This document shows, in pieces, positions 23-26,177 of a stretch of 27,379 nucleotides of DNA. The stretch comes from a virus. Taxonomy: Duplodnaviria > Caudoviricetes. The position numbers were made by a program, and so were the translations under genes. The stretch is taken from positions 1 through 27,379 of the IMG/VR virus record IMGVR_UViG_3300017774_005853, one strand, 5' to 3'. The notes below the pieces were generated by a model, which did no database searches, was not told the DNA's origin, and saw only the letters and a list, made by a program, of their open reading frames with translations. How positions within the stretch are numbered: position 1 is the stretch's first letter; the number at the start of each line of letters is the position of its first letter.

Positions 23-83
23 ACGAGACACGCGCCTGTCATTTTTTCAACTTTTAGTACAAAACTTTCAATAAATACTGAAA

Positions 84-527
84 ATGAGTAAGCCGATTTC
101 ACAGCATCGTTCCGACGGAACCTACCGAAAAGACCGCCACGGCAAGAAAAACCAGGTCGAGCCATTGACAAGCATGCCCAAAATGCCAGCAAACCTACCT
201 GATCTTTGCCGCGATATATGGCGCATGGAGGTGTCAAACCTAATCGAATGTAGGCTAATCGCCCGCAAAGACCTTCCAGCGGTAGCCGAAATGGTGCGTA
301 ACATTTTCCTTATGCAGACCACTACGGAGTTGATTGATAAGTATGGGGCGCTGATTGAAAACGATAAGGGCGGCTTAATGCGCAACCCTGCTTTTACAAC
401 GCTTGAAAAAGCGCAGTCCTTTGTACTCCAGTACCGCAAAGAGTTTGGTTTAACTTCTTTGAGCGGCCAAAAACTGGATAAGAAGGAGCCTGCCGAGGAG
501 CAAAACGAACACGACGACCTTTATTAA
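84..527 (+). CDS. terS: Terminase small subunit, P27 family
   Basis: N-terminal GTYRKDRH, PKMPANL..W, and C-terminal RNPAFT..EFGLT are typical of P27-type TerS; the gene precedes TerL. Confidence 0.9.
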   Translation: MSKPISQHRSDGTYRKDRHGKKNQVEPLTSMPKMPANLPDLCRDIWRMEVSNLIECRLIARKDLPAVAEMVRNIFLMQTTTELIDKYGALIENDKGGLMRNPAFTTLEKAQSFVLQYRKEFGLTSLSGQKLDKKEPAEEQNEHDDLY

Positions 528-2256: not shown

Positions 2257-2909
2257 TGGATTTGCAATACTGCTATGCTGGTTTAGACCTTGCCGCCACA
2301 AATGACTTTAACGCTGCAAGTTTCCTTTTCCCGCCCACATACGGGCAGGCAAAGCCACTGCTTACGCGGTTTTTCTGGATACCAGAAGCGAAGGCAGAGC
2401 AGCGCATAAAGAACAATCCAAGTTTCAAAAAATGGGAGGATGAAGGCTATTTGGAAATAACACCGGGCAATGTCACGGACTACGACTACATAAGGGCGGT
2501 GTTTAACAAAATCCGGGATCGAGGTATTGATATTCGGGTGATTGCTTTTGACCCCGCCTACTCCTATTCATTGATACCTGGATTGATGGCCGATGGGTTT
2601 ACGTGTGAAAAATTCTCTCAATCGCTCATGTCGATGGGGCCAATGGTAAAGGAGTTGGAAAAATTGTTGATTTCCGGCGAAATCATGCACGATGGTAGCC
2701 CCGTTTCACGATGGATGTACGGGAATGTAGAATTGTACATGGGGCCAAACGACCTATATAGGCCAATCAAAAACGCCAAAAAGCCAGAAGCAAAAATAGA
2801 CGGCGTGGTCGCCGATATCATGGCCGTTGGCCAATGGAAAGCAGAGGACAGTAAACCAAAAGCCGGATCGTATTTGTTCGAGGAAGGCGCAAAATTAATA
2901 GCACTATGA
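2256..2909 (+). CDS. terL: Terminase large subunit, C-terminal RNase H-like nuclease part (separate ORF)
   Basis: CYAGLDLA, AFDP and KIDGVVA nuclease motifs; the ATG overlaps the upstream stop (TGATG, 2254-2258). Confidence 0.9.
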   Translation: MDLQYCYAGLDLAATNDFNAASFLFPPTYGQAKPLLTRFFWIPEAKAEQRIKNNPSFKKWEDEGYLEITPGNVTDYDYIRAVFNKIRDRGIDIRVIAFDPAYSYSLIPGLMADGFTCEKFSQSLMSMGPMVKELEKLLISGEIMHDGSPVSRWMYGNVELYMGPNDLYRPIKNAKKPEAKIDGVVADIMAVGQWKAEDSKPKAGSYLFEEGAKLIAL

Positions 2910-3505
2910 AATTCCAAGAAAGCGCCACGGCGCACTACTACCTTGATGGGCTTAACGGCATCGAAATTGGCGGCAGCGCACACAATGCATTTGGCTTAAA
3001 TACGCTCAACGTAGACAAGTTTGGCTCAACCGATCCACGCTCCGCGCACTACCGATCTGAGCAAATACGCATTACCTCAATGGACGGCGGTACGCCCGAA
3101 ATAATGGCGGTGGACGTAATTGCGCCGGGTGATAAGTTGCCGTTCCCAAATAAAAAATTTGACTTTGTAATTAGTTCCCATGTGCTGGAGCATTTTTATG
3201 ACCCGATTGCTGCATTAAAAGAATGGATGCGTGTAGCCTCTAAGTACATTTTCTGCATTGTGCCTAAACGCGATGCGCTGCCAAGCGATGTTGGGCGCGA
3301 TGTGACAACCATTGCAGATCTAATCGAGCGCCACAACTCCAAAGAAAGCCTACCGGATACGGATGAACACCACACTGTATTTGATACCGGACTAATCCGG
3401 GATATTGCCGAACATCTTGGCGTAGAAATGCACATCTGGGAAACGGATGATAAGGCCGGAAACGGCCACGCTTTTTTGATTGACCTAAACGCCCCATTGA
3501 AATAA
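2906..3505 (+). CDS. Class I SAM-dependent methyltransferase (Methyltransf_11-like)
   Basis: GIEIGG motif I and LPFPNKKFDFVISSHVLEH..DP..ALKEWMRV; ATGA overlap with the terL nuclease ORF. Confidence 0.88.
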   Translation: MKFQESATAHYYLDGLNGIEIGGSAHNAFGLNTLNVDKFGSTDPRSAHYRSEQIRITSMDGGTPEIMAVDVIAPGDKLPFPNKKFDFVISSHVLEHFYDPIAALKEWMRVASKYIFCIVPKRDALPSDVGRDVTTIADLIERHNSKESLPDTDEHHTVFDTGLIRDIAEHLGVEMHIWETDDKAGNGHAFLIDLNAPLK

Positions 3506-3511
3506 GACCAA

Positions 3512-4447
3512 ATGAGAAAGATATTAGTTTATATTCCTGATGGCATGTCCGGCGTAGGATACTGGCGCTTTTACCGCCCATTTGCCGAAATGAGAAAGCA
3601 GTTCCGGGGCGAACTGGAGTTCGAATACCGGAACAAGATGTATATAGACGACATCTACAAATTTGACCTTGTAATCTTTTCGCGCCCTTCGGATGATAAC
3701 GCCCTAAATGCAATGCGCGTCTGCGCGGGCGCGGGCATTCCAACAATTTTGGACATTGACGACGATTTGATAAATTTACCAAAAGAGCATCCGCTTTTCT
3801 GGGACTATTACACGGCAAAAAACAATCTGATTGAATCCTTTTCGCTGGCAAACGCCATTTGGGTAAGTACTGAGCAGTTGCTTTATGTTACTGATTCATT
3901 GAAAAAAGGGGTAATTGTAAAAAATGCTATCCTCCCAAGTGAACTGCCGGACAAGCCCGCTCCTTTTACAAACAAATGGTGCTGGCGCGGCGGCATTGCA
4001 TCGCAGGCCGATTTATACTTTGCCCGTGACTGGTACGATGAATTAAAAACACAGGCTTCTGAGTTTCATTTCATCGGCTACGACGGTATGCTTTTTTTGA
4101 AGCACGGGCCGTCCTACCGCTTTAAAAGATGGGAAAGGAATACAGAGGCGTATATGGAAGGCATCAAAAAGGGCGGCTTTAATGTGATCTGGAAGCCACT
4201 GGAGGACAATGCTTTTAACCGCTCAAAGTCAAATATTGCCTGGATAGAAGCTACAATGGGCGGCGGGGCGTGTTTGACCAATTTACAAAGTGATGGATGG
4301 ACAGAGTCGATCTGGAGAGATTCGTGTATTGATAAAGAAACCATTGACGGACATTGGGAGGATTCCGCAGGATGGATAAAAAAATACTACAACCTCCATA
4401 CCGAAAACCAAAAGCGTTTTGAGGTGATAAAAGCGCTATGCCCATGA
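3512..4447 (+). CDS. Glycosyltransferase, GT-B fold (GT4-like, phage type)
   Basis: SGVGYWRFYRP, ILDIDDDL, IWVSTEQL and PLEDNAFNRSKSNIAWIE motifs. Confidence 0.85.
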   Translation: MRKILVYIPDGMSGVGYWRFYRPFAEMRKQFRGELEFEYRNKMYIDDIYKFDLVIFSRPSDDNALNAMRVCAGAGIPTILDIDDDLINLPKEHPLFWDYYTAKNNLIESFSLANAIWVSTEQLLYVTDSLKKGVIVKNAILPSELPDKPAPFTNKWCWRGGIASQADLYFARDWYDELKTQASEFHFIGYDGMLFLKHGPSYRFKRWERNTEAYMEGIKKGGFNVIWKPLEDNAFNRSKSNIAWIEATMGGGACLTNLQSDGWTESIWRDSCIDKETIDGHWEDSAGWIKKYYNLHTENQKRFEVIKALCP

Positions 4448-4980: not shown

Positions 4981-5234
4981 AAAAAATAACATTCGAGCAG
5001 TTTGAAAAAGTCTACATCGACTGCCTGGGCGCGTTTTCGGAAGATCGAAACCCATGCTTTAAAGCCTTTGAGGCAGCGCGGGCAATCGTTGCTGAAAAGT
5101 ACGGCAATCCCAAGTACAACAGCTATGAAGCGTTCAAAGCGTGCCTTTCGCGCCATCGCAAAGCCCGCCGAAGCGCCGTAATGCTTAAACAGGTTAGCAT
5201 AAGCGTGAGCGAGGTTAGCAAAACACTAAATTAA
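4977..5234 (+). CDS. Small basic hypothetical protein, possibly DNA-binding
   Basis: 85 aa, ATGA-coupled, helical, with KYNSYEAFK and a basic C-terminus. Confidence 0.65.
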   Translation: MKKITFEQFEKVYIDCLGAFSEDRNPCFKAFEAARAIVAEKYGNPKYNSYEAFKACLSRHRKARRSAVMLKQVSISVSEVSKTLN

Positions 5235-11417: not shown

Positions 11418-11783
11418 ATGGTCAATCAAATTGAACTTGGCGGGAAAGTCCGGCCAATACTTTTCGGAAATTATGTTTTCCGGAAAATGAAAACGGAACA
11501 AGGGATTGGGCTTGCTGAAATCCTAAAAGGTTTAGACACCTTTGAAGTAATGGATTTTAACATCCTTTCAAACATGGTTTATTATGCGCTTCGCGCAGGC
11601 GAAATGGCAAACAGTCTAAGCCCTGACACATTTACAGCCGACAACGTTTCAATCTGGATGGATTTAGAACAAGGGGTTTTATTGAAGATCCTGCCTTGGG
11701 TTAATGAATCCATCACTTCAATGGTAACGGACAAAGACGCACCCGTGCCAAGCGAAGCGGAGGACGCAAAAAAAAAGAATTAA
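11418..11783 (+). CDS. Tail assembly chaperone (lambda gpG analogue)
   Basis: Lies between tail tube and tape measure; IELGGKVRPILFG start; ends at a slippery A-run (AKKKN). Confidence 0.88.
   Translation: MVNQIELGGKVRPILFGNYVFRKMKTEQGIGLAEILKGLDTFEVMDFNILSNMVYYALRAGEMANSLSPDTFTADNVSIWMDLEQGVLLKILPWVNESITSMVTDKDAPVPSEAEDAKKKN
11771..11777 (+). other. Programmed -1 ribosomal frameshift site A AAA AAG
   Basis: In-frame A_AAA_AAG heptamer two codons before the stop; the -1 frame is open into ORF 11819..12136. Confidence 0.88.
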
Positions 11784-19442: not shown

Positions 19443-19467
19443 AGGAATCCTAAATGAATCCTAAATG
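19435..19467 (+). repeat. 11-bp tandem repeat, three copies
   Basis: AATCCTAAAGG AATCCTAAATG AATCCTAAATG. Confidence 0.9.
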
Positions 19468-19479
19468 AATTTTAAGAAC

Positions 19480-20880
19480 ATGAAACAGATACTTTTATTC
19501 TTATCGCTCGTTTTGTTTCAAACTGCGCTTTCTGCGCAGGTGAAAACAGCGGGCGTAAATTACAGCGTGGGCGCTCCAGCGTGGACGCCAAGCGTAAATA
19601 CAGGTAGTGAACTGGCCATAGATACAGTTTCAAAGCGCCTTTACTTATGGAACCGCAACACCGGCGCATGGGACATGCAAGGCCGGGGTGTTGACCAAAC
19701 ATCGGGATCTACGCCACCGGCATACACGCCAAACCAAACAGACAGTTATTTGGCGCTTAATAACGCCAACCCGCCAGAACTATACGCATGGACTGGATCG
19801 GCTTGGGCAAAGGTGGGCGGTACGGTGCAAACCATCGACACTTTTTCCGTGTCCGGTTCTATTGTTTCCCTTTCGCTTTCAGGCGATGCGCAGCCCGCAA
19901 AAACGATCACGCTGCCAGCGAGCGGTATTACTTCGCTCAACAGCCAAACAGGCGCAACCCAAGCCTTTGCGACGGGTACAACTGGCACAGATGTAGGTAT
20001 TGTTTCAAGTGCGAATACGCACACTTTTAATTTTCCAAACGCTTCCGCTTCGGCGCGGGGGCTGCTTACGAGTGCGGATTGGTCAACTTTCAATGGGAAG
20101 GTTGGTGGTAGTGGGGTTTCGGGGCAAGTAGGGTATTTTTCGGGCACAAGTACGCTTGCAGGAAATGCCGACTTTACCTATAATAATACGCAAAAATTAA
20201 TACTATTAACCAATTCAACATATAGCAGCACAGATAGAGGCATAAGGGTGCAGCAAAGCACAGGAGATGGCGCATCTGCTTTGATTACATTTCAGAAATC
20301 AAGAGCGGGGCTTGTAACGTCTGGAACCGGACTTGGTACGTTTGACGCGCAAGGATTTGACGGGGCGGCATATCAAATATCAAGTCGTATTTCATTTTCT
20401 GCATCTGGAACGCCAGCATCCGGTATAATACCTGGGATAATAACATTTTCGACTGCAAATACTTCCGGTGTATTAACTGCACGATCCTCAATAAACGAGG
20501 CGGGATTATTTTCAAATTTTGGAAATGTTCACATCGGCAACGGCACTAATGCCGCTCGCCTTCACGTCCAAGGCGCTGGCTCCACCTCCTCCACATTTAC
20601 GGCGCAGTTTCATAATTCGACGGGTACGAATAATGCGCTTATGGTGCGGGATGATGGAAACGTGGGGGTGGGGACGAGTGCGCCGTCTTCATCGGCATTG
20701 CTTGACGTTTCATCTACAGCCAAAGGTTTCTTACCTCCTCGCATGACAGCTACACAAGCAAGTGCCATTGCTTCGCCAGCCGAAGGATTAATGGTATATG
20801 TCACAAATACAAACGGCACATTTACCTCAAAGGGGTGGTGGGGCTACAACGGTGCCGCATGGGAAAAATTGAACAACTAA
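19480..20880 (+). CDS. Fibre/adhesin-like protein with a Sec signal peptide
   Basis: MKQILLFLSLVLFQTALSA|QV; fibre repeats; C-terminal GNVGVGTSAP.SSALLDVSST.KGFLPPRMT..GLMVY..WWGYNG.AW. Start set at 19480 (track uses 19465). Confidence 0.8.
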   Translation: MKQILLFLSLVLFQTALSAQVKTAGVNYSVGAPAWTPSVNTGSELAIDTVSKRLYLWNRNTGAWDMQGRGVDQTSGSTPPAYTPNQTDSYLALNNANPPELYAWTGSAWAKVGGTVQTIDTFSVSGSIVSLSLSGDAQPAKTITLPASGITSLNSQTGATQAFATGTTGTDVGIVSSANTHTFNFPNASASARGLLTSADWSTFNGKVGGSGVSGQVGYFSGTSTLAGNADFTYNNTQKLILLTNSTYSSTDRGIRVQQSTGDGASALITFQKSRAGLVTSGTGLGTFDAQGFDGAAYQISSRISFSASGTPASGIIPGIITFSTANTSGVLTARSSINEAGLFSNFGNVHIGNGTNAARLHVQGAGSTSSTFTAQFHNSTGTNNALMVRDDGNVGVGTSAPSSSALLDVSSTAKGFLPPRMTATQASAIASPAEGLMVYVTNTNGTFTSKGWWGYNGAAWEKLNN

Positions 20881-20895
20881 ACCAAACATACAAAC

Positions 20896-21513
20896 ATGAA
20901 ACAAACACTTTTTGTAATCCTGCTTTTCGCAGCATTCACCGCAAGTGCCCAAGTGCAAACGGTCACGCTCGACACGACATACATCGTAAATTCGGGAGGT
21001 AACTTTTTCGAAGTTTCCCGCATCGAATATTCAAACGGCGCATACAGCGAAAAGCGCGACTTTTTGGGCGACACCCTTACCATATTCAACAGATATGTGG
21101 CCAAAATCGAATCAGAGGCCAACGAAATCGCAGCAGCAGCCGCAACGGCATACCGTATGCGGCAAAAAACAACGGAGTGGGCGCGATTAGATACGTTGAC
21201 AGCCGCTCGGTTACTGCGCAGCCCGATCGCGGGTATTATGGACGTTTACGAAAAGGAATTTTTGTCGGGCAACTGGCAAATAGAATTTTCAGGAACAAGT
21301 ACAGCCGCAACATTTCCGCGTCTATCTTCCAACAAACGCATACGCTTACAAGCAAACGGCACGGCGCGCACCATGCTTTTATACGGAAAGGTTATGCGCC
21401 TTGTAAATTACCCATTCACGGGCCTAAACACGTTATTCCAGTTGCGCGAGGGCTACTGGATCAATTTGGAATTTGGCGACAGCGCCCGCCGTGTTGTGCT
21501 TCGCCGTATTTAA
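20896..21513 (+). CDS. Exported hypothetical protein (Sec signal peptide)
   Basis: MKQTLFVILLFAAFTASA|QVQ. Confidence 0.8.
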   Translation: MKQTLFVILLFAAFTASAQVQTVTLDTTYIVNSGGNFFEVSRIEYSNGAYSEKRDFLGDTLTIFNRYVAKIESEANEIAAAAATAYRMRQKTTEWARLDTLTAARLLRSPIAGIMDVYEKEFLSGNWQIEFSGTSTAATFPRLSSNKRIRLQANGTARTMLLYGKVMRLVNYPFTGLNTLFQLREGYWINLEFGDSARRVVLRRI

Positions 21514-21644: not shown

Positions 21645-21986
21645 ATGTCCGACACTCAGAAAATCACAGACGAAACTACCGAAGGGATGAGCGTACAAAC
21701 TCCCTTCAAAAAGGGGCTGTACCTGACCCTAATTGGTCTTTTAGTAAGCGCCGTTACAGCGCTTTGGCTTTCCTATTCGGCTGCGCTTAAACGCCTGGAT
21801 GATTGCCACTTTGCGCAGACGGTTGGAATGGAGCGGCTTAAAAACGAGCAGATACAGCAAATGCGGGAACAAGAAAAGCGGATTGCGGAACGTATTGCGG
21901 AAGTTGAAGAAAAATACAGGCAGATACTTTTCAATGTATCTGAGGCCAAGCGCGAATTGAAAAACAAATTAAAGCAAAATGATTGA
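21645..21986 (+). CDS. Single-TM coiled-coil membrane protein (i-spanin-like or holin-associated)
   Basis: TM segment LYLTLIGLLVSAVTALWLSY, then a charged coiled coil; first gene of the lysis region. Confidence 0.55.
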   Translation: MSDTQKITDETTEGMSVQTPFKKGLYLTLIGLLVSAVTALWLSYSAALKRLDDCHFAQTVGMERLKNEQIQQMREQEKRIAERIAEVEEKYRQILFNVSEAKRELKNKLKQND

Positions 21987-22299
21987 TAATCTATACACAT
22001 GGGTACTCCCTGGGCTTTTCTTTTTGCTTATGTCGTTTTGCTCCAATCGGCAACGCGGCATTGAGCAGTTAAAGGCAAGCGCAAGCACGAATCAAATGAC
22101 GGCATTAAACGTGCGGCTGCAAGTACTCAAAGGTAAATCCGATATGCTTTTTTTAAGCAGCGATGCCCTGCTTATGCAGGCGCGAAACGGGAAGGCAAGA
22201 AGGCCACTACAAAAACAAATCATTCACATGGTTGATTCAATCAATTATAACACAATTGACGGGATTGACCAGCAAAGCATTATAAAACATGAATACTGA
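21979..22299 (+). CDS. Membrane protein or lipoprotein (o-spanin candidate)
   Basis: Hydrophobic N-terminus ending LLMSF-C, a weak lipobox; overlaps both neighbours. Confidence 0.45.
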   Translation: MIDNLYTWVLPGLFFLLMSFCSNRQRGIEQLKASASTNQMTALNVRLQVLKGKSDMLFLSSDALLMQARNGKARRPLQKQIIHMVDSINYNTIDGIDQQSIIKHEY

Positions 22300-24274
22300 A
22301 AAAAAGAACCTGGTGCCGCCAACGGACGGGCCAAAAAGCCCCTTTCAAGGGACGAACCTTTACCTTTCTTTGCTTTTGCTTGTTGGCTCCTTTTGGGGCT
22401 TACAGGAGGGTTTAGCAAACCAAATCATCGGCTCCTTTGCTGGCTTGATTGCCGTTGTTGGGGCTACGCGCAACTGGGTAAAAATTGCCAAGCCGCGCGG
22501 ATTTAAGGAATACATTACCGACAAAAACACCTGGCAGTATATTTCTGTTGCCCTGCTTACTTTCTTGCCACAGGCAGACACCTTGGTGCCGCAACTTAAA
22601 AGCCTGGTAGATGCGCTTTTTACCGGCAATTGGACAGAAATTGTCAAAGCGGGTATTTCGCTCCTTACGATTCTGTATTTCCTTGTCATTAAGCCAAAGG
22701 GGCTTAAGGTGAGCAGCGCGGGCGTAATTGTATTCATCTTCATTTTTTCTGCCTCCAGCGCAGACGCGCAAGTGTTTAACCGCTACAAACGCCACCTAAA
22801 GCAAGCAGCCAAAGAAGTTGCAAAGGATACGTCCGACATTGTACTTGATCCAATCGAAAGTGTACCTTCAAAAAAAAACGGCTTCACAGCCGAAGCGGCA
22901 ACCAATTGGGGCGTACAGTATTTGCTGCCTGCCGATTTACGGCAGCGCCTTGTAAATGAATGTACCAACAAGGTTACGATCAAAGTGTACGACACGGCGG
23001 GTAAATCCGACCATGCAAGCCTTAAACAGGGCCAACTGCCGGGGAGTAATTACACCACATCCACGCGCATAGACGATTTACAAGGTCACGGCACCCACTG
23101 CGCAGGCATCATCGCTGCTGATGAATTAGGCCTTTGTGATGCCTTGGTAGATAAGGGGCTGGTGCGCTGGAAGCCGGTTAAAATCCTTGGTGATAATGGC
23201 AGTGGCTCATTTGATTGGGTGAAAACTGCAATTGCTGCCGAGCGGGCTGACGACCGTAACCGCATTGCCGCCGGGGAGTTTGTGGTGTGTAGCGGCTCCT
23301 TTGGGGGCGGCACCGGCATCATTGAAAATGTAGACAAAGAAATACAGGCAAGTACCGATTTTGGTGTAATATTTATCTTTGCTGCTGGCAATAGCGGCAC
23401 CGCAGGCGTGGGGTATCCAGGATGCGGCAAATACAGCATTGCATGCGGTAGTTTAGATCAAGGTATTACCCGCAGTTCATTCTCCTCTACGGGTGTAGAA
23501 GTTTGGGCAGGAATGCCCGGCAGAAACATAAATAGTACCTATTTAAACAATACATTTGCAACCCTTTCGGGTACGTCGATGGCAACGCCTTTTCTAAGTG
23601 GAGCGTGCGCAATTGCACTTTCTAAATGGGGTGGCAGACTTGCCAACTATCAAGTAATGAAAAACTACCTGGCATGGTGCTGCCAAGATTTGGGAGCGAA
23701 AGGGAAAGATAACGAAACCGGGTGGGGTATTGAACTGATTAAAAACATCTTGGACAGAAACCCCATAGACGCGCCCGACATGGGCAACCCTGGCAACCCT
23801 GGAAACCCAGACCCAGGAAACCCGCCAACACGGGAAAAAAGAATGCTCACTTTTGATATTGCCGGGCCGCTTGATGTGTATTGGTCAATTGTAGAAGGTA
23901 GCAGCCTAAAGAACAGTAAGGACTTAGCAACCGTTTACAAACTGAAAAAGGGTAAATCATCCGCCAGAGCGGCGCTTTCAAAAGTTACCATCGACAAAAT
24001 CGTAGTCGAATACGAAAGCACGACCGACATTAAAAACAGCGCTAAAGCCGTGCAGACAGCAGTAAAATCATTTTTCCAGGGGCGCGGCTTTGGCCTTGTG
24101 AGCGGCTCGGACAGCGCGGATGCCGTTTATTGGGCGTCTTACTTCCTGGAGTTGATTTTGGAAACACAGAACAAACCAGCGATTAAATTAGACACCATCA
24201 TCGTATCGGCAAAGGATCAAGACGGGGTGCCGATTGTATGGAGCAATAGGCTGCTTCATTATCCAAGAAATTAA
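22289..24274 (+). CDS. Multi-TM (holin-like) domain fused to an S8 subtilisin-like serine protease
   Basis: Triad VYDTAG / HGTHCAG / GTSMATP and oxyanion AAGNSG; about 5 hydrophobic segments in residues 1-160; PGN-repeat linker and a C-terminal domain. Confidence 0.9.
   Translation: MNTEKKNLVPPTDGPKSPFQGTNLYLSLLLLVGSFWGLQEGLANQIIGSFAGLIAVVGATRNWVKIAKPRGFKEYITDKNTWQYISVALLTFLPQADTLVPQLKSLVDALFTGNWTEIVKAGISLLTILYFLVIKPKGLKVSSAGVIVFIFIFSASSADAQVFNRYKRHLKQAAKEVAKDTSDIVLDPIESVPSKKNGFTAEAATNWGVQYLLPADLRQRLVNECTNKVTIKVYDTAGKSDHASLKQGQLPGSNYTTSTRIDDLQGHGTHCAGIIAADELGLCDALVDKGLVRWKPVKILGDNGSGSFDWVKTAIAAERADDRNRIAAGEFVVCSGSFGGGTGIIENVDKEIQASTDFGVIFIFAAGNSGTAGVGYPGCGKYSIACGSLDQGITRSSFSSTGVEVWAGMPGRNINSTYLNNTFATLSGTSMATPFLSGACAIALSKWGGRLANYQVMKNYLAWCCQDLGAKGKDNETGWGIELIKNILDRNPIDAPDMGNPGNPGNPDPGNPPTREKRMLTFDIAGPLDVYWSIVEGSSLKNSKDLATVYKLKKGKSSARAALSKVTIDKIVVEYESTTDIKNSAKAVQTAVKSFFQGRGFGLVSGSDSADAVYWASYFLELILETQNKPAIKLDTIIVSAKDQDGVPIVWSNRLLHYPRN
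23782..23826 (+). repeat. Coding Gly-Asn-Pro repeat linker
   Basis: GGCAACCCT GGCAACCCT GGAAACCCA GACCCA GGAAACCCG encodes GNPGNPGNPDPGNP. Confidence 0.8.
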
Positions 24275-24314
24275 GCGAGTTGTAAGACGCGAAATAACCA
24301 TAAAAACAGATACT

Positions 24315-24917
24315 ATGTCCGAATTACCACCACAAGCCGAGGCCCAAACCTTTTCATCCTTAATCACTGATGCTTTCCTGATAAAACTTGGCCGTGTTAC
24401 CAACGTACGTTTTTTTGAGGAGCAAACCCTTTGCGTGAACCTTGTTGCTGAGGAGTGCGACAAAATCAATGAGCAAGAAGGCGAAGGCGCAATTAACAAG
24501 CAGGAATTTGCGTACATTCTTGCCACCTTAAAGCATGAATGCGGCTTCCGGTCTATAAAGGAATACAAAGCGCCGGAAGGTACCAAGGTCTGGGATATGC
24601 AGAAGCGGTACTGGTTTACCGGCTTTTATGGGCGCGGTTACAGTCAATTGACCTGGCAAAAGAACTACGCCAAGTTTTCGCCCATTGTGGGTATTGATTT
24701 GGTGAAAAATCCCGATGAAGTTTTAAAGCCAAAAATTGGGGCTAAAATCCTGGTGTTTGGTATGTACAAAGGATTGTTTTCGGGAAAGAAACTGCGGGAT
24801 TATTTTAGCGATGCGGGAAACCCACGCTGGAATAGCGCCCGCCGAATAGTAAACGGCACCTTCCAGGCACAAAAGGTCACGGATGTAGCCATCAAGATAT
24901 TGCCGCTTTTGGCATAA
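24315..24917 (+). CDS. Endolysin, glycoside hydrolase family 19
   Basis: AYILATLKHEC, FYGRGYSQLTWQKNY, DLVKNPD and ARRIVNG. Start set at ATG 24315 (track uses TTG 24234). Confidence 0.9.
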   Translation: MSELPPQAEAQTFSSLITDAFLIKLGRVTNVRFFEEQTLCVNLVAEECDKINEQEGEGAINKQEFAYILATLKHECGFRSIKEYKAPEGTKVWDMQKRYWFTGFYGRGYSQLTWQKNYAKFSPIVGIDLVKNPDEVLKPKIGAKILVFGMYKGLFSGKKLRDYFSDAGNPRWNSARRIVNGTFQAQKVTDVAIKILPLLA

Positions 24918-25295: not shown

Positions 25296-26177
25296 TTATG
25301 CTTTCTGCAAAAGTCGGCTTTTCTTTGCAGCAAGATGCATTTTTATTTCGTTAATTTTTATGCGCCCATCCTTAACACTATGCGCCCGGAATATCCGCCC
25401 GTTTTGGCTGTAATACCCGTCAAAGCCGCTATTTAAATAATACGCTGGATTATTCCAACCTTGGTATAGCACCGCGTTTTCATCCGCCCCGATAAACGAA
25501 GGCGCAAACACGCACAAATAAACCTGGAGCGCATCACTGAGCGCCTTGCCTTTTGACCGATCCATCAAATACTTTTCGGTCAAATCCATTATGAAGGCCG
25601 TGTTTCTTTCACGGCATGCCTGCTTTACCTGCACTAAGTTATACCCAAGCCCTGTGAGGCCAACGGTAGTAAACTGAATCCATCCGGCGGCAACGCCGTC
25701 GGTTCGGATGCAAAAAGGGTCTAAGCCGCATTCGGAATGCGCCACCTCGTAAATCGCAAGCGGTGTCGATCCGGTCTTTGCCGCGATTTCTCGCGTCCTG
25801 CGGATCACTATTTCTGCTTCATCGGGCCGCACCTTTTTGCGTAGTTCATTTTCGTAGATGGATACGGCATAACTGGAAGTGTCCGAAACTTCGTAAGCGG
25901 GAATAAATACAAACTCAGCATACTGCAACGCATCGGCAAGCGGCAGGCGGCACACAAAAAGGATGGACGCCAGCGCTAAAATGTAAAATACGCGCCTGCC
26001 GATGGGCAGTACAATAAAACGCCGTATAAAGCCCCAGGAAAGGCGAACTACCTTTGCAAGCATACTGAGTAACGCAGAGGCTTGGATAAGGCACCATGCC
26101 AGCAAACAGCAAGCGGCAAAGCCAAATGCGCCTGGCATGGAAAGCAGGATTTGGACGGCGTCGGATAGGGGTTTCAC
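25296..26177 (-). CDS. Membrane-anchored lytic transglycosylase (lysozyme-like/SLT fold)
   Basis: Two N-terminal hydrophobic segments; HSECGLDP (catalytic Glu), AAGWIQFT, YLCVFAP..IG and Y..N.GFD..DG.I motifs. Confidence 0.78.
   Translation of the reverse strand: MKPLSDAVQILLSMPGAFGFAACCLLAWCLIQASALLSMLAKVVRLSWGFIRRFIVLPIGRRVFYILALASILFVCRLPLADALQYAEFVFIPAYEVSDTSSYAVSIYENELRKKVRPDEAEIVIRRTREIAAKTGSTPLAIYEVAHSECGLDPFCIRTDGVAAGWIQFTTVGLTGLGYNLVQVKQACRERNTAFIMDLTEKYLMDRSKGKALSDALQVYLCVFAPSFIGADENAVLYQGWNNPAYYLNSGFDGYYSQNGRIFRAHSVKDGRIKINEIKMHLAAKKSRLLQKA

Follow-up and report, generated by a model that had tools for sequence, protein, structure and literature searches.

Why should the lysis cassette of a phage contain a protease, and why should that protease be joined to a membrane protein? 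The question is raised by the virus record IMGVR_UViG_3300017774_005853 (Duplodnaviria; Caudoviricetes), whose complete 27,379 bases were analysed and are referred to here as the window. The window holds a late operon of the siphovirus type on the + strand (terminase, portal, prohead protease, major capsid, tail tube, tape measure and large tail-region proteins), and the final + strand block of this operon is a module composed of a gene for a coiled-coil protein with one transmembrane segment (1-TM), a small Cys-bearing gene, a 661-residue open reading frame (ORF) and a GH19-type endolysin gene. In the ORF (22289-24274, +) a membrane domain is fused in frame to a subtilisin with an intact catalytic triad, and the GH19 gene next to it encodes no export signal. 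A first-pass annotation, made from the sequence alone, had proposed that this one polypeptide may yield a holin plus a released protease. The predicted topology and the match of the internal signal to those of free proteases favour this proposal, whereas most relatives are unfused and other cargos occur too; overall, we give slightly better than even credence to a likely holin and a signal-peptidase-released protease produced from one late gene.

The membrane-subtilisin fusion

The regions of the ORF are as follows.

22289..22693, + strand: residues 1-135, duplicated-hairpin four-helix membrane domain, likely holin, predicted with both termini in the cytoplasm (N-in/C-in)
22694..22768, + strand: residues 136-160, internal Sec signal peptide with a predicted signal peptidase I (SPase I) site, A158-D159-A160/Q161
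22769..22966, + strand: residues 161-226, short N-terminal extension or pro-region, conserved in free members
22967..23728, + strand: residues 227-480, subtilisin (S8) catalytic domain with D235/H267/S430, by Pfam
23759..24274, + strand: Pro-rich linker (residues 491-514) and family-specific alpha/beta C-terminal domain (residues 515-661)

Judged by the triad, the oxyanion Asn and a profile match above cut-off, the C-terminal part of the ORF is a subtilase of family S8. Pfam Peptidase_S8 aligns to residues 227-480 with 103.7 bits against a cut-off of 21.8, and the triad D235/H267/S430, already described as complete in the first-pass annotation, is invariant together with the oxyanion N368 in 35/35 rows of the family. 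Among solved structures, subtilisin BPN' is the closest to the S8 domain (E 3e-35). The triad order and motifs are those of subtilisins BPN' and Carlsberg (MEROPS S8A) and of Bacillus phage subtilases, unlike which the protein has no I9 propeptide and carries a C-terminal domain of its own. No Pfam match to Inhibitor_I9 was found in the fusion protein, where a 66-residue extension takes its place. Residues 515-661, with a conserved RG-x-L...D-x-A-x-W core, matched nothing in Pfam or NCBIfam, the sorting domain of the type 9 secretion system (T9SS) included, and gave no usable match to an Atlas feature (best TM 0.51-0.54). A full-length AlphaFold2 (AF2) model from 4 sequences was unusable (pLDDT 35).

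The fusion recurs in three further clusters (P0002-P0004, 82-85% identity) and in the related locus L087, where a GH19 gene is also next. Contigs from three runs of other studies (X2, X3 and X4) cross the junction without gaps, a count that excludes run X1, which may be the source of the window, and other studies' freshwater runs contain DNA near-identical to the window. Fused protease clusters (n=12) come from ENA, JGI and Logan sources. With an in-frame ORF, independent bridging contigs and conservation in relatives, the fusion first noted in the earlier annotation is real. An internal GTG at V141 was rejected as a separate start, being not conserved in P0002-P0004.

Internal signal peptide of the protease

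A protease search (A3) returned 221 clusters at E<=1e-60, of which the best 120 were examined; 12 carry the membrane domain and 108 are unfused. A hydrophobic N-terminus is present in 94 of the 108 free proteases and is followed in 91 of these 94 by a small residue and then Gln, and Gln+1 is nearly invariant in the S8 family. No other N-terminal partner was found among the 108, in which the catalytic His lies at or before residue 168. The segment in the window has a basic n-region, an h-region at residues 145-153, a small c-region and the sequence SSADA/Q161 at residues 156-161, and the free member P0106 is nearly the same around the site (SADA/QVFNKYKR vs SADA/QVFNRYKR in the window; 51% identity over the mature chain). 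All 12 S8 fusions, across five lineages, keep the basic n-, h- and c-regions with a small residue and Gln.

By motif and homology, the segment thus has the properties of Bacteroidota Sec/SPase I substrates (basic n-region, h-region, small residues at -3/-1 and Gln+1). In PMC5837995, Gln+1 is given as a Bacteroidetes rule that applies to a mean of 71% of SPase I substrates. Because the motif matches the Sec signal and Gln+1 of the free members, residues 136-160 are, by this comparison, the signal peptide of a free ancestor kept mid-chain, in the orientation that the charges predict, and the internal SPase I site named by the first-pass annotation agrees with the free family members. Since most proteases are free and bear their own signal, the fusion is, as judged from these proteins, dispensable for export. 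The lack of an I9 propeptide and of a T9SS sorting domain makes the periplasm the likely end point until lysis.

The concern that the homologues might be ordinary chromosomal subtilases does not hold for those found, which lie in phage contigs or prophage-like segments. Related S8 proteases occur in 63 GenBank phage records, all at <60% identity and none covering 80% of the query. A motif pattern scan was discarded, 6/120 of its loci being true members, and a scan of the genome collection, which covered 2/64 parts, returned mostly ordinary subtilases.

Family and topology of the membrane domain

With residues 1-165 as query against 1.84 billion representatives, phmmer returned 87 matches, 86 after one (P0089) was discarded as low-complexity. 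Free-standing proteins, nearly all of about 100-175 aa, make up 75 of the 86; six carry a catalytic domain as fusion partner (3 S8, 2 astacin M12A and 1 SNase), and in five the C-terminus consists of a signal-like segment and a short tail. A word-based search for free N-domains had given 0 among 136 candidates before phmmer found the 75, and scans of viral contigs with the single fusion protein and with GH19 gave none. The free membrane protein P0027 had no match among GenBank phages.

The first-pass annotation had described four hydrophobic segments arranged as two similar hairpins. The duplication is well supported: in alignment A2, which combines the domain of the window with 65 of the 75 free members, the two halves matched each other in HHalign with a probability of 77% (E 2e-5, 31 columns), whereas the best of 30 column-shuffled alignments reached 8.7%, so the repeat is more than chance. 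The regular arrangement needs qualification, as helix 3 of the window (82-96) is weakly hydrophobic (Kyte-Doolittle value, KD, 0.95 vs 1.31 in the family) and failed a 19-residue scan at KD>1.3, and an amphipathic helix (99-112) intervenes between helices 3 and 4. A half-size, single-hairpin member in G202, whose gene overlaps the stop codon of an amidase gene, fits the second-half profile over 61/64 positions with 35 bits.

The AF2 model of the domain is a helical chain (pLDDT 76, pTM 0.39). The net charges of the A2 family alternate along the chain (N-terminus +1.45, loop1 -1.18, loop2 +2.32, loop3 -1.44, C-terminus +2.03). Taken with the well-established positive-inside rule, this alternation predicts an N-in, four-span, C-in topology, which would place the protease, as the earlier reading had supposed, in the periplasm rather than in the cytoplasm. 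In the mechanism that we propose, the domain would insert N-in and span the membrane four times, and its basic cytoplasmic linker would act as the n-region for Sec export of a 501-aa pro-protease, a step that the loop charges make very probable. Host signal peptidase I would then cut between Ala160 and Gln161 and pyroglutamate would form, for which the free members and the Bacteroidota Gln rule give equally high confidence. After this cut the likely holin would stay behind in the inner membrane and the protease would be loose in the periplasm.

Several other features of the family were observed. Locus L005, at position 5031, has an in-frame 39-base deletion relative to L006, by which the membrane domain loses a large part of helix 1. 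L312-L316, L319 and L102 are integrated elements with an integrase and many small membrane proteins and with no tail genes in the stretch examined; they are possibly tail-less viruses that share the lysis module. Three copies are present in G296. A recurrent neighbour immediately upstream of the module is an unnamed family of membrane proteins with the motif W-N-P...S-W-x-N-K-Y (L098:947-1366, L085:3528-3926, L088:2388-2828, L003:2193-2900 and L315:11289-12181); none was seen in the cassette of the window.

Recurrence of the join

The membrane domain of the window is 47% identical to those of P0002-P0004, compared with 92-97% for the S8 domain, and in an X2 contig positions 22345-22720 are replaced by a diverged stretch of equal length (374-base). 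On these two comparisons, the membrane domain has been swapped while the join was kept. The S8 tree comprised 119 rows (114 of the 120 clusters and 5 locus proteins), and the fused state needs 5 changes on it, at least 4 of them forced by strong branches; 5 changes also lie within the bootstrap range of a careful 33-row tree. A single fused clade is rejected on the S8 tree (p-AU 7e-50). On the membrane-domain tree (89 rows, few columns), the count for signal-bearing forms is 9 changes, of which at least 7 are forced. The changes may include losses, and fused rows nest among free rows. From these trees, related phages are likely to have made the join several separate times, also with a metalloprotease (astacin) and a nuclease (SNase). 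The join likely recurs because the domain ends in a basic cytoplasmic tail, so that read-through into a downstream signal-bearing gene would give a correctly oriented, cleavable product. Once made, the join would fix the co-production of holin and protease.

The strongest alternative is that the fusion is a tolerated accident, the loss of a stop codon between neighbouring genes having been neutral as signal peptidase separates the parts; holin and protease would then function just as they do in phages without the fusion. It is compatible with the in-frame fusion and with the export, cleavage and holin steps and opposes a selected join, and we regard it as a serious possibility, if somewhat short of even. 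The join is possibly neutral because the free protease exports itself. The unfused majority (108 of the 120 proteases), which weighs against our reading, fits such an accident, as do the nesting of fused rows among free rows and the unfused loci in identical gene order (L085 and G363 for S8; L326 for astacin, beside the fused L081); free SNase genes are also found next to the module in L091 and L098. A permissive basic tail would by itself account for the recurrence. A neutral origin is harder to reconcile with the persistence of the join through the swap of the membrane domain, with a seven-row fused clade that has deep branches on the S8 tree, and with the absence of any other fused partner.

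Candidate holins in the lysis module

The genes that flank the ORF in the module are the following.

21645..21986, + strand: 1-TM and coiled-coil protein of 113 aa, i-spanin-like or 1-TM holin, with one TM segment at 24-43
21979..22299, + strand: 106-aa protein with a hydrophobic N-terminus ending in Cys, possible o-spanin-like lipoprotein
24315..24917, + strand: predicted GH19-type endolysin without export signal (Pfam GH19 E 1.6e-5, just under cut-off; PHROG endolysin E 2.4e-18)

For the GH19 gene, ATG 24315 is the most likely start (200 aa; 202 aa in the L087 homologue), and no hydrophobic segment was found in its protein, which confirms the earlier statement that it has no export signal. 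Because GH19 lacks such a signal, an exit is needed for it, and the gene neighbourhood suggests that the membrane part probably lets it out, with the membrane domain probably being a holin. Features of the holin class are present, namely a small membrane protein with 1-4 spans and a basic cytoplasmic C-terminus. The survey of homologues called for by the first-pass annotation found the fusion conserved and the free N-domain homologues beside six kinds of cell-wall hydrolase (GH19, M15, GH108, amidase_2, an amidase_3 fragment and glucosaminidase). A cell-wall hydrolase lies <=4 genes away in 10/14 flanked lineages, distributed as follows.

Window and L087: GH19; L003-L006 and L082-L084: M15; L085 and G363: phrog_894
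L102: amidase_3 fragment (E 0.019); L197: glucosaminidase
G296: GH108 or phrog_873; G311: GH108; G202: amidase_2

Several observations weigh against a holin. Curated holin families (PF23987 Pam3 gp28, PF04688 SPP1, PF16081 and the PHROG holins) gave no match at cut-off, and when viral structures were searched with the model of the membrane domain, 0 matches were obtained at E<=0.001. Below cut-off, weak matches were found to PF23987 in 4/87 members, to Holin_SPP1 in 1/87 and to PHROG holins in 3/66 (E 0.013-0.09), and PF23987 had no match on the carrier genomes G296 or G311. The nearest Atlas clusters are 131-aa viral hypothetical proteins (0.88-0.90), and the nearest named ones, which are holins, stand at 0.82 and are a lead only. 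Helices 1 and 3 are short. The count of 10/14 lineages with a nearby hydrolase comes with no background rate for late-operon genes, and the other 4/14 (L088, L098, L209 and L215/L242, the neighbours of L209 and L215/L242 being scanned in part) have no recognised endolysin on the same strand. Loci ended by contig ends (L081, L091, L099, L100, L210, L284 and L326) stand outside the 14. A rival candidate, the upstream 1-TM protein with a weak spanin match, is present in the cassette itself.

It is accordingly conceivable, though unlikely, that this 1-TM coil protein (21645-21986) is the holin and that the four-helix domain is an antiholin, an accessory lysis factor or a virion-membrane factor. 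The first-pass annotation had seen no other obvious multi-TM holin in the cassette, and the 1-TM candidate was missed. This protein occupies the corresponding slot in most related loci, and its counterpart in G296 has a weak BhlA holin match (E 0.045). The loci without a nearby endolysin and the failure of the four-helix domain to reach any holin cut-off point the same way, as does the putative second spanin, which is missing in several loci: Cys proteins occupy the slot of the 21979-22299 gene in L081, L082, L085, L326 and G363, and the slot is without one in L003-L006, L091, L098 and L099. The 1-TM proteins, on the other hand, have weak Rz-like matches (E 0.02 in the window's protein, by PHROG, and E 0.011). 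Free four-helix genes directly abut endolysins (L082, L102, L313 and G202), and in G190 a different, 74-aa holin-like gene replaces the four-helix gene before a free protease, with an amidase two genes on. As for the two spanin-like genes described upstream of the ORF, they overlap by 8 bases and the second has a Cys after a hydrophobic stretch, but the lipobox is non-canonical, the Rz-like match of the first is no better than E 0.02, and the second (21979-22299) has no family match, the PHROG search included. We retain the pair as candidate spanins only, and the four-helix domain as the probable holin.

Release, host and role of the protease

If cleavage failed or were slow, the product would be a five-span, tethered periplasmic protease, which might act where it sits by trimming lysis regulators, spanins or receptors. 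Signal peptidase may process mid-chain signals poorly, the astacin fusions, with their Cys lipoboxes, would remain anchored, and the top NCBIfam match of the ORF is to a mycosin (TIGR03921), though far below cut-off (74.5 vs 278.75 bits). We nevertheless consider this improbable, as the A-x-A/Q motif is identical to that of free secreted members and a small residue with Gln is present in 12/12 S8 fusions of five lineages.

The host is likely to belong to the Saprospiraceae, although the counts are small. In this family, which is that of G001, the membrane domain was detected in 5/401 genomes and the protease in 2/401 at E<=1e-80, and all inspected carriers have it in prophage-like segments (G383, E 1e-3, lies outside the inspected set); phylum-wide samples gave 0/391 genomes for the membrane domain and 0/391 for the protease. 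Saprospiraceae include filamentous and sheathed forms. The protease released at lysis might act as an escape enzyme on a sheath, surface-layer or matrix protein, which is the weakest step of the mechanism, at somewhat less than even odds; its substrate is a guess, and this counts against the reading as a whole. The cargos are interchangeable, broad hydrolases, which fits the removal of envelope or matrix better than specific maturation, and the maturation of exported virion proteins put forward in the first-pass annotation is unlikely for the same reason. In its most extended and rather doubtful form, the proposal is that Saprospiraceae viruses use a duplicated-hairpin holin as the modular leader of signal-peptidase-processed polyproteins and so stock the periplasm in advance with exchangeable escape enzymes, be it subtilisin, astacin or nuclease, which free progeny from sheathed filaments or biofilm, one clade tuning the ratio of holin to protease by slippage at a T9 run.

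Alternatively, the protease may act before or apart from lysis, in receptor destruction, in superinfection exclusion or as the nutritional exoenzyme of a lysogen. L001 and L002 give some weight to this view, and weigh against ours, in that their free protease is away from lysis genes, upstream of terminase genes and beside a large lipoprotein; in L098, genes for S8, SNase and a further exported enzyme lie together close to an integrase-like gene. Here, however, the protease shares its chain with a late protein that is likely lethal, and its position between holin-like and endolysin genes is repeated (L085, G190 and G363), so we judge such a role improbable as well. An assembly or sequencing artefact joining two genes is refuted by the 12 fused clusters from three sources and the gap-free bridging contigs from three other studies.

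A T9 run in related phages

In the related loci L003-L006 a run of nine T lies in the signal peptide, and it is the longest run in 3/4 of these loci.

L005:5400-5408
L006:5475-5483
L003/L004:5395-5403

The fusion is in frame across the run in L003/L004. In L005/L006 the membrane ORF stops just past it and the protease continues in the -1 frame, where one inserted T would restore the frame. L005 and L006 share 90% identity, these ORFs contain no further indel that shifts the frame, and the nonsynonymous divergence of their S8 parts is low relative to the synonymous one (dN 0.022, dS 0.337), which indicates that the protease is still under purifying selection. In PMC5574713, transcription insertions are described as rising exponentially with A/T run length. 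Within the viral collection, the junction was found in these four contigs only, and the close relatives P0092-P0094 have a different signal sequence. A slippage switch on the one hand, and a recent shared deletion or a homopolymer error on the other, appear about equally probable. Slippage at the window's own A9 run (22870) was rejected as evidence, 2 runs >=9 being seen vs 3.56 expected.

Comparison with known systems

The best-known arrangement of this kind is the holin-endolysin-spanin cassette of the lambda S/R/Rz/Rz1 type. The module resembles it in its place at the end of the late operon, a signal-less endolysin, a small multi-span protein with a basic C-tail and candidate two-part spanins, and differs in that its membrane protein is a duplicated hairpin of no curated holin family, which a signal peptide links to an exported protease. 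Type 10 secretion systems (T10SS) are described in PMC13284979 as domesticated bacterial systems that are non-lytic in Salmonella. They share with the module a holin and a peptidoglycan hydrolase linked to the release of an exported enzyme cargo; the module differs in belonging to a phage and in having its cargo in one chain. A T10SS would be a domesticated locus without virion genes, whereas terminase, portal, capsid, tail tube and tape measure genes lie upstream on the + strand here.

Two further comparisons concern the processing. The FbcH cytochrome b-c1 precursor of Bradyrhizobium is a polytopic protein with an internal signal peptide, from which a periplasm-facing second protein is cut off by signal peptidase; it belongs to a chromosomal respiratory complex, in contrast to a phage lysis gene with exchangeable hydrolase cargos. 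Animal RNA viruses have viroporin polyproteins processed by signal peptidase, such as alphavirus 6K-E1, in which the last span of a pore-type membrane protein serves as leader for the protein that follows and host signal peptidase makes the cut; with a bacterial host and an enzyme cargo here, this is an analogy only and implies no homology. No description of a phage holin-subtilisin fusion was found by title and abstract, a search that left most subscription journals outside its scope, so that absence from print is unproven.

If correct, our reading would describe a phage polyprotein matured by host signal peptidase in which a lysis timer is joined to an exported enzyme, and would add two families not described before, one of holins and one of phage subtilases (the latter being the 221 clusters above). 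Exported proteases and nucleases that recur in lysis modules would add an exit step beyond membrane, wall and outer membrane, of relevance to the filamentous Bacteroidota that live in fresh water and activated sludge. Because fused, unfused and frameshifted versions occur in nature, the question lends itself to direct tests.

Other features of the window

The terminase large subunit is present as two ORFs (1183-2256 and 2256-2909) with a 1-base overlap inside the nuclease domain; the halves match Pfam positions 3-85 and 95-284, and a split gene, a frameshift or an error is possible. Genes for a DNA methyltransferase (537-1172), a second methyltransferase (2906-3505) and a glycosyltransferase (3512-4447) are interleaved with the packaging genes. 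An A9 run at 11768-11776 lies at the end of a 121-aa ORF and is followed by a 105-aa ORF and then the tape measure gene, which we take to be the usual slot of the tail-assembly-chaperone frameshift. Two tail-region proteins (19465-20880 and 20896-21513) have Sec-like N-terminal signals with Gln+1 and no family match, and similar signal-bearing tail-region genes are present in G296, G363 and G190. A membrane-anchored lysozyme/transglycosylase-like protein (25296-26177, - strand; PHROG E 1e-8 to 2e-9) is encoded downstream of the module, and its gene is kept there, on the opposite strand, in L087, L088 and L089.

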